Positions 1,042-60,888 of a DNA stretch of 64,000 nucleotides are shown here, piece by piece. The notes under the pieces were generated by a model, which had not been told where the DNA came from, ran no database searches, and worked only from the letters and a program-made list of their open reading frames with translations. The stretch lies in assembly GCF_030013595.1 (NCBI RefSeq), contig NZ_CP122768.1; one strand, written 5' to 3'. The stretch comes from Escherichia coli (GTDB lineage Bacteria; Pseudomonadota; Gammaproteobacteria; Enterobacterales; Enterobacteriaceae). The translations under genes and the position numbers were made by a program. Within the stretch, counting starts at the first letter, position 1. Each line of letters begins with the position of its first letter.

Positions 1042-2247
1042 ATGACCCTACCAAAAATCAAACAGGTTCGCGCCTGGTTTACTGGCGGTGCGACAGCAGA
1101 AAAAGGCGCTGGCGGCGGTGATTATCACGACCAGGGGGCAAATCACTGGATTGATGATCATATTGCCACCCCGATGAGTAAATACCGCGATTACGAGCAG
1201 TCACGCCAGTCATTTGGCATTAACGTTCTTGGCACGTTGATTGTTGAAGTCGAAGCAGAAAACGGCCAGACCGGATTCGCCGTTTCGACAGCCGGTGAAA
1301 TGGGCTGTTTTATTGTCGAAAAACATCTTAACCGTTTCATTGAGGGTAAATGTGTCAGTGATATCAAACTGATCCACGATCAAATGCTCAATGCCACCCT
1401 GTATTACTCCGGCTCTGGTGGCCTGGTGATGAACACGATTTCCTGTGTCGATCTGGCTCTGTGGGATCTGTTCGGCAAAGTGGTCGGGCTTCCGGTTTAT
1501 AAACTTTTAGGCGGCGCAGTTCGTGATGAGATTCAGTTCTACGCCACAGGTGCGCGTCCGGATCTGGCAAAAGAGATGGGCTTTATCGGTGGCAAAATGC
1601 CGACGCACTGGGGGCCACATGATGGCGATGCGGGGATCCGCAAAGATGCCGCTATGGTCGCGGATATGCGTGAAAAATGCGGTGAGGATTTCTGGTTAAT
1701 GCTCGACTGCTGGATGAGTCAGGACGTGAACTATGCCACCAAACTGGCCCACGCTTGCGCGCCCTATAACCTGAAATGGATCGAAGAGTGCCTGCCGCCA
1801 CAGCAGTATGAAGGTTATCGCGAACTGAAACGCAACGCGCCAGTCGGAATGATGGTCACCAGCGGTGAGCATCACGGCACACTGCAATCTTTCCGTACGC
1901 TTTCAGAAACCGGTATCGACATTATGCAGCCGGATGTTGGCTGGTGCGGTGGCTTAACCACGCTGGTGGAAATTGCCGCAATCGCCAAATCCAGAGGGCA
2001 ACTGGTGGTGCCGCACGGTTCGTCTGTTTACTCTCACCATGCGGTGATCACCTTCACCAATACGCCATTCAGCGAATTCCTGATGACCAGCCCGGATTGT
2101 TCAACGATGCGTCCGCAATTTGATCCGATTCTGCTTAATGAGCCAGTGCCGGTGAATGGTCGTATTCATAAATCAGTGCTTGATAAACCCGGTTTCGGCG
2201 TCGAACTCAATCGTGACTGCAATTTGAAACGCCCCTACAGCTACTAA
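1042..2247 (+). CDS. rhmD: L-rhamnonate dehydratase (enolase superfamily)
   Basis: ORF 1030..2247. The ATG at 1042 gives a ~401-aa product ([13 protein letters not shown]..); the upstream ATG at 1030 is an alternative. Identity from recall of the RhmD sequence. Confidence 0.85.
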
Positions 2248-59099: not shown

Positions 59100-59226
59100 A
59101 TGCCACATCCGGCATGGTATGCCGGATGTGGCTTATGCTGATAAGACGCGCCATCGTCGCATCAGTCAACCGGCTCGGGCGTTAGATGTCGGATGCGGCG
59201 TGACCGCCTTATCCGACCTACGGGGT
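59100..59226. repeat. REP cluster (BIME) between mqo and eco
   Basis: Several REP palindromes (tgccacatccggcatggtatgccggatgtggc; gataagacgcgcc..; ggatgcggcgtgaccgccttatccgacctac). Confidence 0.8.
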
Positions 59227-59244
59227 GCCGCACTTCACAGCAGT

Positions 59245-59733
59245 TTAGCGAACTACCGCGTTGTCAATTTTCTCTTCCGCCTTCCAGATGCGGTATTTCA
59301 CATCCACATTGTCTGGCGTATACACCACGATCGGCAGCTTGCTGTTGTAACGCAGCATTCCAGCATCGCCCAGATACGCGGTGACAAATTTCTTCTCTTT
59401 TTTGCCATCCGGGCAGGCCATCATCGTGGAAACCGGGGAACTGACTTTATCAAAGACATAATAATCATAGCCCCAGCCTTCCAGCGTTTTGCTTTCCAGC
59501 TTCCCGCCGAGACGATGCAAATTGCAATCGACTTCCAGCGTCTGACCGATTAACAGTTCTACTTTCAGGGTAGATTCATCTTTTTGCGGGGTTAACTGAA
59601 TCACCTGACGCTTCATGCCTTTTTCAGCTTGTGGATAAGGCGCGATTTTTTCCAGTGGCTGGACACTCTCTGCCGCCCAGGCGGAAGTGGTGGCGAAAGC
59701 GGCAAACAATACTGCAGGTAGAATGGTCTTCAT
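59245..59733 (-). CDS. eco: ecotin, periplasmic serine protease inhibitor
   Basis: 162-aa ORF with signal peptide [20 protein letters not shown]. Confidence 0.92.
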
Positions 59734-59992
59734 TTTTTTGCTTTCCTTCTTTATTTATAGGTTTTCACCGATGATGTCGCTGAAGGTTAACATATTCATC
59801 AGATTTATTAATTTGCTTTATGAATAACTTAAAGAACATTCAGACAATTTTACCTGCTCTTTTAGTGTTAAATTCTGATGAGGGAGCAAACCGACATAAA
59901 TATCTCTGGTGAATTAATCGCTATATAAATATGTTTATAACCATTTGAAATGTGAGCAAAAGCCAGTTTTTGCCACGCTTCCCGCCACTCTT

Positions 59993-60028
59993 TTGATCCT
60001 GCTACAGGTTTTACCCCGATCGGGGTAT
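59993..60028 (+). promoter_or_regulatory. napF control region: candidate FNR site and NarP/NarL 7-2-7 palindrome
   Basis: TTGATcctgCTACA at 59993..60006 is a degenerate FNR site; TACCCCG-AT-CGGGGTA at 60013..60028 is a perfect palindrome; centres are 20 bp apart. Confidence 0.6.
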
Positions 60029-60140
60029 GCATCTTTGACACATCCTTTAATATCTTAGCGGCTATAAAAATGGCTTATTAATTATGCGGTTTATTTGGTC
60101 GCTCTCAATTTTCAGAGCGCGTTAATGATGGAAGGTCAAT

Positions 60141-60635
60141 GTGAAGATTGATGCATCCCGTCGGGGCATACTCACTGGTCGCTGGCGCAAAGCCAGTAAC
60201 GGTATCCGTCCGCCCTGGTCCGGTGATGAATCTCATTTTCTGACCCATTGCACCCGCTGCGACGCCTGTATTAATGCTTGTGAAAACAACATTCTGCAAC
60301 GCGGCGCGGGCGGCTATCCGAGCGTTAACTTCAAAAATAACGAGTGCAGCTTCTGTTACGCCTGCGCGCAGGCTTGCCCCGAATCGCTATTTTCTCCGCG
60401 CCACACCAGGGCCTGGGATTTGCAGTTCACCATTGGGGACGCGTGCCTGGCGTATCAGTCAGTTGAATGCCGCCGCTGTCAGGATAGCTGTGAGCCAATG
60501 GCAATTATCTTTCGCCCGACGCTCTCCGGGATCTACCAGCCGCAACTTAATAGCCAACTTTGCAACGGATGTGGAGCATGTGCAGCCAGCTGTCCGGTAT
60601 CAGCCATAACTGCGGAGTATCTCCATGCACACTAA
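60141..60635 (+). CDS. napF: ferredoxin-type protein of the periplasmic nitrate reductase system
   Basis: 164-aa ORF with GTG start and multiple CxxCxxCxxxCP clusters. Confidence 0.9.
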   Translation: MKIDASRRGILTGRWRKASNGIRPPWSGDESHFLTHCTRCDACINACENNILQRGAGGYPSVNFKNNECSFCYACAQACPESLFSPRHTRAWDLQFTIGDACLAYQSVECRRCQDSCEPMAIIFRPTLSGIYQPQLNSQLCNGCGACAASCPVSAITAEYLHAH

Positions 60636-60888
60636 CTGGCAAGTTTGCAGCCTGGTCGTGCAGGCCAAAAGCGAACGAATTTCAGACATCAGCACCCAAC
60701 TGAACGCCTTTCCCGGCTGTGAAGTTGCTGTCAGCGACGCGCCGAGCGGTCAGTTGATTGTGGTGGTGGAAGCAGAAGACAGCGAAACGCTGATTCAAAC
60801 CATTGAGTCAGTACGCAACGTAGAGGGCGTGCTGGCGGTGTCGCTGGTTTATCACCAGCAGGAAGAGCAAGGTGAGGAAACACCATGA
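60625..60888 (+). CDS. napD: NapA maturation chaperone
   Basis: 87-aa ORF overlapping napF by 11 nt and napA by 4 nt. Confidence 0.9.

Follow-up and report, generated by a model that had tools for sequence, protein, structure and literature searches.

The intergenic region upstream of napF in this Escherichia coli genome carries a perfect palindrome a short distance downstream of a degenerate FNR-like sequence. The question raised by this arrangement is whether the two elements are the sites through which FNR and the nitrate-responsive regulators NarP and NarL control the operon, whether they are conserved for some other reason, or whether they are accidents of sequence. A stretch of 64,000 nt was analysed, and is referred to throughout as the window. 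In what follows, identity to K-12, positions, conservation and spacing were computed, binding and regulatory logic are taken from published papers, and the transcription start and −10 assignments are predictions. The region is almost certainly the control region of the periplasmic nitrate reductase operon, napFDAGHBC, with the published architecture of FNR and NarP/NarL sites.

Genomic Context of the eco-napF Intergenic Region

The open reading frames between 57449 and 63371 are, in order, mqo (+), eco (−), napF (+), napD and napA, and comparison with the K-12 annotation showed the same order at its nap locus. The NapF product scores 248 bits against the NCBIfam equivalog model TIGR00402 (cut-off 102). 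The features of the region are collected in Table 1. The spacer between eco and napF is 407 bp long and occurs as a single copy in 5421 of 5426 complete E. coli genomes. It had been described in the first-pass annotation as AT-rich, and the composition bears this out, with 35% G+C (59734..60140) compared to 52% for the whole window.

The window departs from MG1655 at nine single bases of the intergenic region, each of them located before 59966. The remainder, as far as the napF start codon (59966..60140), is identical in the two sequences, so that promoter mapping performed in K-12 transfers to the window base for base. The neighbouring genes, the site sequences and the 20 bp spacing between the sites are also the same in K-12. 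Eight of the nine differences fall inside the yojO ORF. One of the nine (59933; G in the window, A in K-12) changes the central spacer of the ModE-type repeat. The 80 bp haplotype at 59868..59947 is rare, being found in the same form in only five of the 5426 E. coli genomes; its closest match is in the O169:H41 strain Res13-Lact-PER13-34.

An Rfam scan of 59100..60700 gave no RNA family match in the intergenic region. On the far side of eco, where mqo and eco converge at their 3′ ends, lies a REP/naRNA4-like element (RF02564, 59136..59218) with a score of 54.8 bits, compared to a gathering score of 59.5.

Table 1. Coordinates of genes, regulatory sites and promoter elements in the eco-napF region of the window.
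Feature	Position	Strand	Description
eco (ecotin) CDS	59245..59733	−	Upstream divergent neighbour of napF; from the ORF list and K-12 annotation
eco promoter-like hexamers, GCGACA-15-TATAAA	59754..59780	−	Found by reading the sequence; hexamers on record for eco (PMC3946193)
yojO ORF, 54 codons	59868..60032	−	K-12 b4604; antisense over the NarP, FNR and ModE sites
ModE-type inverted repeat, CGCTATATAA-N-TTTATAACC	59919..59942		Predicted centre −133.5; two mismatches to the ModE consensus
Degenerate FNR site, TTGAT-cctg-CTACA	59993..60006		Centre 59999.5, predicted −64.5; left half invariant; ChIP peak nearby
NarP/NarL 7-2-7 site, TACCCCG-AT-CGGGGTA	60012..60027		Exact single match; same as K-12; published 7-2-7 site; conserved
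Putative overlapping −10 hexamers, TAATAT (P2, 60048..60053) and TATCTT (P1, 60051..60056)	60048..60056	+	Read from the sequence; in a conserved block
napF 5′ leader	60064..60140	+	Predicted P1 start (A60064) to start codon; includes GGAAGG ribosome-binding site
Sigma-70-like promoter, TTGAGA-16-CATAAT	60081..60108	−	From a promoter scan; inside the napF leader, directed towards yojO
napF CDS	60141..60635	+	GTG start, 164 aa; K-12 b2208

The NarP/NarL Palindrome and the FNR Site

The perfect 16 bp palindrome TACCCCGATCGGGGTA is present in one copy in the window; measured back from the napF start codon, its first base is at 129 bp and its centre (60019.5) at 121.5 bp. It is made up of the inverted heptamers TACCCCG and CGGGGTA on either side of an AT spacer, a 7-2-7 arrangement. 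The first-pass annotation had recognised the palindrome, its length and its heptamer arrangement correctly, but placed it at 60013..60028, one base too high. Each heptamer agrees with the TACYYMT consensus at six of seven positions, the sole departure being position 7 (G, where the consensus has T). The pair of inverted TACYYMT-type heptamers, separated by exactly 2 bp, belongs to the control region of an operon regulated by nitrate and nitrite, and its position would allow activation.

A 7-2-7′ site has been reported for four genes, napF among them, and NarP binds only sites of this kind (PMC2718512). The napF site is located at −40 to −49 (PMC4549865). Transcription of napF is induced by FNR and phosphorylated NarP, while phosphorylated NarL competes and blocks binding of NarP-P, and a fusion carrying −85 to +19 is sufficient and NarP-responsive (PMC9262595). 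A full-text literature search for site sequences did not find the letters of the napF site in print. The proposal that the palindrome is the NarP/NarL site agrees with its identity to K-12, the published 7-2-7 site, its conservation across genera and its spacing from the FNR site, and the comparison with mapped napF elements turned up no mapped sites at other coordinates.

The FNR-like sequence TTGATcctgCTACA (equivalent to TTGATCCTGCTACA) was found exactly where it had been placed before. Measured against TTGAT-N4-ATCAA, its left half matches at 5/5 and its right half at 2/5 positions, and with three mismatches it is, taken alone, a match at the level of chance. An FNR peak by ChIP-seq and ChIP-chip is listed for napF/yojO with its centre at 2301669 (U00096.2) and a weak motif score (ln p = −5.37; PMC3688515, Table S5). 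The low score suits the earlier description of the site as degenerate. Taking the offset between U00096.2 and U00096.3 as 1978 bp, the peak centre maps to about 59991 in the window, 8.5 bp from the centre of the FNR site, in line with occupancy of the site by FNR in vivo. The centres of the two sites, 59999.5 and 60019.5, are 20 bp apart, as the first-pass annotation had stated, although its own coordinates would give 21. FNR-dependent transcription of napF requires co-activation by NarP (PMC3688515).

Dam GATC sequences are present at 59995..59998, within the left half of the FNR site, and at 60018..60021, the exact centre of the palindrome; they are 23 bp apart.

Core Promoter, Transcription Start and Leader

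Two −10-like hexamers, offset by 3 bp, lie inside the conserved block 60036..60059. Stewart and colleagues reportedly described, in 2003, dual overlapping promoters at napF, and a pair of hexamers 3 bp apart fits that description. Their assignment to P1 and P2 is provisional, and draws on the −44.5 anchor together with the 2003 work. If the palindrome is set at −40 to −49, P1 would begin at A60064, with the FNR motif falling at −64.5 and the ModE-type repeat at −133.5. The P1 start would then be at about 60064, with the FNR and NarP/NarL sites at −64.5 and −44.5.

FNR activates from about −41.5 at class II promoters, and from about −61.5 and further upstream at class I promoters. A position of −64.5, which is counted from a predicted rather than a mapped start, is unconventional, and is consistent with napF being described in print as an atypical promoter. 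The published napF architecture reportedly has an FNR site at −64.5 and a NarP/NarL 7-2-7 site at −44.5, spaced by 20 bp (Stewart et al. 2003; Darwin et al. 1998), and the ModE site of nap is reported to be at −133.5 (McNicholas and Gunsalus 2002).

Within the leader, a terminator-like hairpin (60086..60102) is within chance expectation. The only other FNR-like motif of the region, TTGGTCGCTCTCAA (60095..60108), also occurs here, at about +32 to +45, where it overlaps the −35 hexamer of the antisense promoter. It has two mismatches to the consensus, a better match than the −64.5 site. Neither E. albertii nor Citrobacter preserves its right half, and it lies 110 bp from the centre of the published ChIP peak.

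Conservation across Genera and within E. coli

A NapF scan of species-representative genomes provided seven informative loci, from a divergent Escherichia, E. albertii, four Citrobacter and Leclercia. When conservation was ranked by block over eight sequences from three genera (Escherichia, Citrobacter and Leclercia), the most conserved parts of the napF upstream alignment were 60010..60034 (NarP site), 60036..60059 (core promoter) and 60125..60138 (ribosome-binding site). Within the intergenic region, conservation is highest at the NarP block and the core promoter, and their flanks diverge. The stretch from the FNR site through the NarP site to the −10 region is free of indels, and the 20 bp spacing is fixed.

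The left half of the FNR site, TTGAT, is invariant in 9/9 sequences. The right half is poorly kept: E. coli proper has CTACA, and other Escherichia and Citrobacter have CAACA. In the palindrome, the outer bases are likewise unchanged in all nine sequences, and changes in the heptamers are confined to position 5, where C or T is found, and position 7, while the centre reads GATC, AATT, GATT or CATT. Two Citrobacter genomes have TACCCCAATTGGGGTA, in which a symmetric double change (G>A and C>T) leaves the palindrome perfect, exactly what a symmetric dimer site predicts. Variation is therefore seen at degenerate positions, with symmetry maintained. The napF promoters of Citrobacter, Leclercia and E. 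albertii share with the window the TTGAT half-site, the 7-2-7 site, the spacing and the −10 block, but differ in the palindrome centre and heptamer position 5; Leclercia, in addition, is without the ModE-type site. The GATC in the FNR half-site is kept in all relatives, and most Citrobacter, as well as Leclercia, have lost the one at the palindrome centre. The Leclercia sequence aligned upstream of the napF promoter (about 2201..2240 of the extracted locus, L008) contains a tRNA T-arm-like motif, GGTTCGAATCC, which suggests that the neighbour on that side is a tRNA gene in place of eco/yojO.

Within E. coli, 4948 of 5421 genomes share an identical 80 bp core (−76 to +4). A 30-mer around the FNR site is matched exactly in 5414 of 5426 genomes and one around the NarP site in 4968, about 8% of complete genomes differing at the latter. 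Five genomes with a single mismatch in the NarP 30-mer were sampled, and all were O157:H7-type or O169:H41 strains. The two variant genomes that were aligned (O157:H7 and one O169:H41) carry TACCTCGATCGGGGTA, the most frequent variant encountered, an imperfect palindrome in which the heptamer TACCTCG (changed at 60016) still fits TACYYMT; E. albertii has the same variant base at this heptamer position (position 5). These natural variants, like the symmetric change in Citrobacter, behave as the heptamer consensus predicts. In Salmonella Typhimurium, the napF promoter is similarly NarP-dependent, and NarP was found there by ChIP (PMC12421874).

Alternative Explanations for the Conserved Block

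The palindrome might be primarily the target of another factor, such as IscR, or act through its central Dam/PvuI-type GATC, with NarP and NarL in a secondary role. IscR has been reported to repress nap (PMC8139620) and is listed for napF (PMC3688515), and GATC is found both in the FNR left half and at the centre of the palindrome. However, the central GATC is replaced (by AATT, GATT or CATT) in three of the four Citrobacter and in Leclercia, and it is the outer heptamer bases, TACC..GGGGTA, that are invariant, as the NarL/NarP consensus predicts. This explanation is considered very improbable, and a NarP/NarL site is the preferred reading of the palindrome.

Coding constraint on an antisense gene is another potential cause of the conservation. 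The first-pass annotation had allowed for a small unannotated ORF between eco and napF; a 54-codon ORF is indeed present on the minus strand, but is already annotated in K-12 as yojO (b4604), and the palindrome and the FNR site lie beneath its first 15 codons. It also appears in most PGAP annotations, as 'protein YojO' or 'hypothetical protein'. A sigma-70-like promoter is directed at it, and the start of the predicted peptide, MHTPIGVKPVAGSKE, is similar between genera. Against this, the frame is stopped at codon 16–21 in five lineages (E. albertii, divergent Escherichia, E. coli MFDS1006657, Citrobacter and Leclercia) in which the DNA block is still conserved, and conservation runs past the yojO start codon into the ORF-free segment 60036..60059. 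Substitutions relative to MFDS1006657 are spread evenly over the three codon positions (18/19/14), and the codon changes relative to K-12 are mostly non-synonymous (five, and two synonymous). No family model for YojO was found in NCBIfam. With a frame that is not maintained and no synonymous excess, YojO lacks the pattern of a conserved small protein and, judged from sequence, is probably not one; the ORF may be spurious or very young. The similarity of its first 15 codons is accounted for by the regulator sites beneath them, and it is highly unlikely that coding constraint explains the conserved block.

The hexamers of the promoter facing yojO, TTGAGA and CATAAT, are listed as a yojO-side constitutive promoter in the napF/yojO spacer, identified by in vitro RNA polymerase SELEX (Shimada et al. 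2014, PMC3946193). Antisense transcription from this promoter would cross P1/P2 and the NarP and FNR sites, and could conceivably modulate nap by transcriptional interference, with TTGGTCGCTCTCAA perhaps shutting the antisense promoter under anaerobic conditions. This is a speculative proposal and an unlikely one. If true, yojO would be a regulatory by-product or a young gene specific to E. coli, not a conserved protein.

Judged from this 64 kb sequence alone, the palindrome and the FNR-like motif do not exceed chance. One perfect 16 bp palindrome was observed, compared to a mean of 1.05 in block shuffles, and TACYYMT-NN-AKRRGTA with up to two mismatches was matched 3 times (2.5 expected). Matches to TTGAT-N4-ATCAA at three mismatches are abundant (354 in the window, 243 expected). 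The case for the sites is accordingly built on position, conservation and published experiments, and not on motif statistics. Chance features without a regulatory role would hardly form the most conserved part of the intergenic region over three genera while their flanks diverge, show a symmetric compensatory change in Citrobacter, and coincide with a published 7-2-7 site and FNR ChIP peak at the napF promoter, and this explanation can be dismissed with near certainty.

ModE and CRP Inputs

The candidate ModE repeat, CGCTATATAAATATGTTTATAACC, has two mismatches to the consensus, an inverted repeat of the type CGNTATATA-N6-TATATANCG. An inverted repeat of the right type is present upstream of a molybdoenzyme operon. 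Citrobacter carries the repeat as CGTTATATAAT..TATATAAC, which is closer to the consensus, while in Leclercia the site is absent and the aligned upstream sequence is unrelated. Activation of nap by ModE has been reported (PMC8139620).

A scan for CRP sites (TGTGA-N6-TCACA, up to three mismatches) found no match in the intergenic region. Between the ModE and FNR sites, the block TTGAAATGTGAGCAAAAGC (59946..59964) is conserved in Escherichia and Citrobacter, and the segment AAATGTGAGCAAAAGC (59948..59963) has a good left half of a CRP site only (AAATGTGA), the right half being poor. Stewart and co-workers are said to have described a Crp site at nap in 2009, and this block could be that site.

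A Model for Control of napF

Under anaerobic conditions, FNR would occupy the weak site upstream of napF. At low nitrate, or in the presence of nitrite, NarQ would phosphorylate NarP, and a NarP-P dimer would bind the palindrome, 20 bp downstream of the FNR site and adjoining the −35 region. FNR and NarP-P would then jointly activate P1, an intrinsically poor promoter with TATCTT as its putative −10 hexamer and a start at about 60064. At high nitrate, NarL-P would compete for the 7-2-7 site and displace NarP-P while activating poorly itself, so that nap expression would peak at low nitrate. The ModE-type site would couple expression to molybdate, and IscR would repress nap aerobically.

At nirB and nrfA, FNR binds at the conventional −41.5 and the 7-2-7 site is upstream. 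At napF this order is reversed, with FNR upstream and NarP adjoining the −35 region. The pairing of FNR with NarL/NarP, and the inverted-heptamer 7-2-7 type of site, are shared with nrfA, nirB and fdnG (PMC2718512), but at napF, NarL is an antagonist instead of an activator (PMC9262595).

The palindrome and FNR site are already known, as the published elements of the napF promoter, and their recognition here is correct but ordinary. As a classic, well-dissected promoter of anaerobic respiration, the region has little value as a discovery. It does serve as a positive control, in that a reader given the raw sequence arrived at the FNR/NarP architecture known from the literature with an error of no more than one base.
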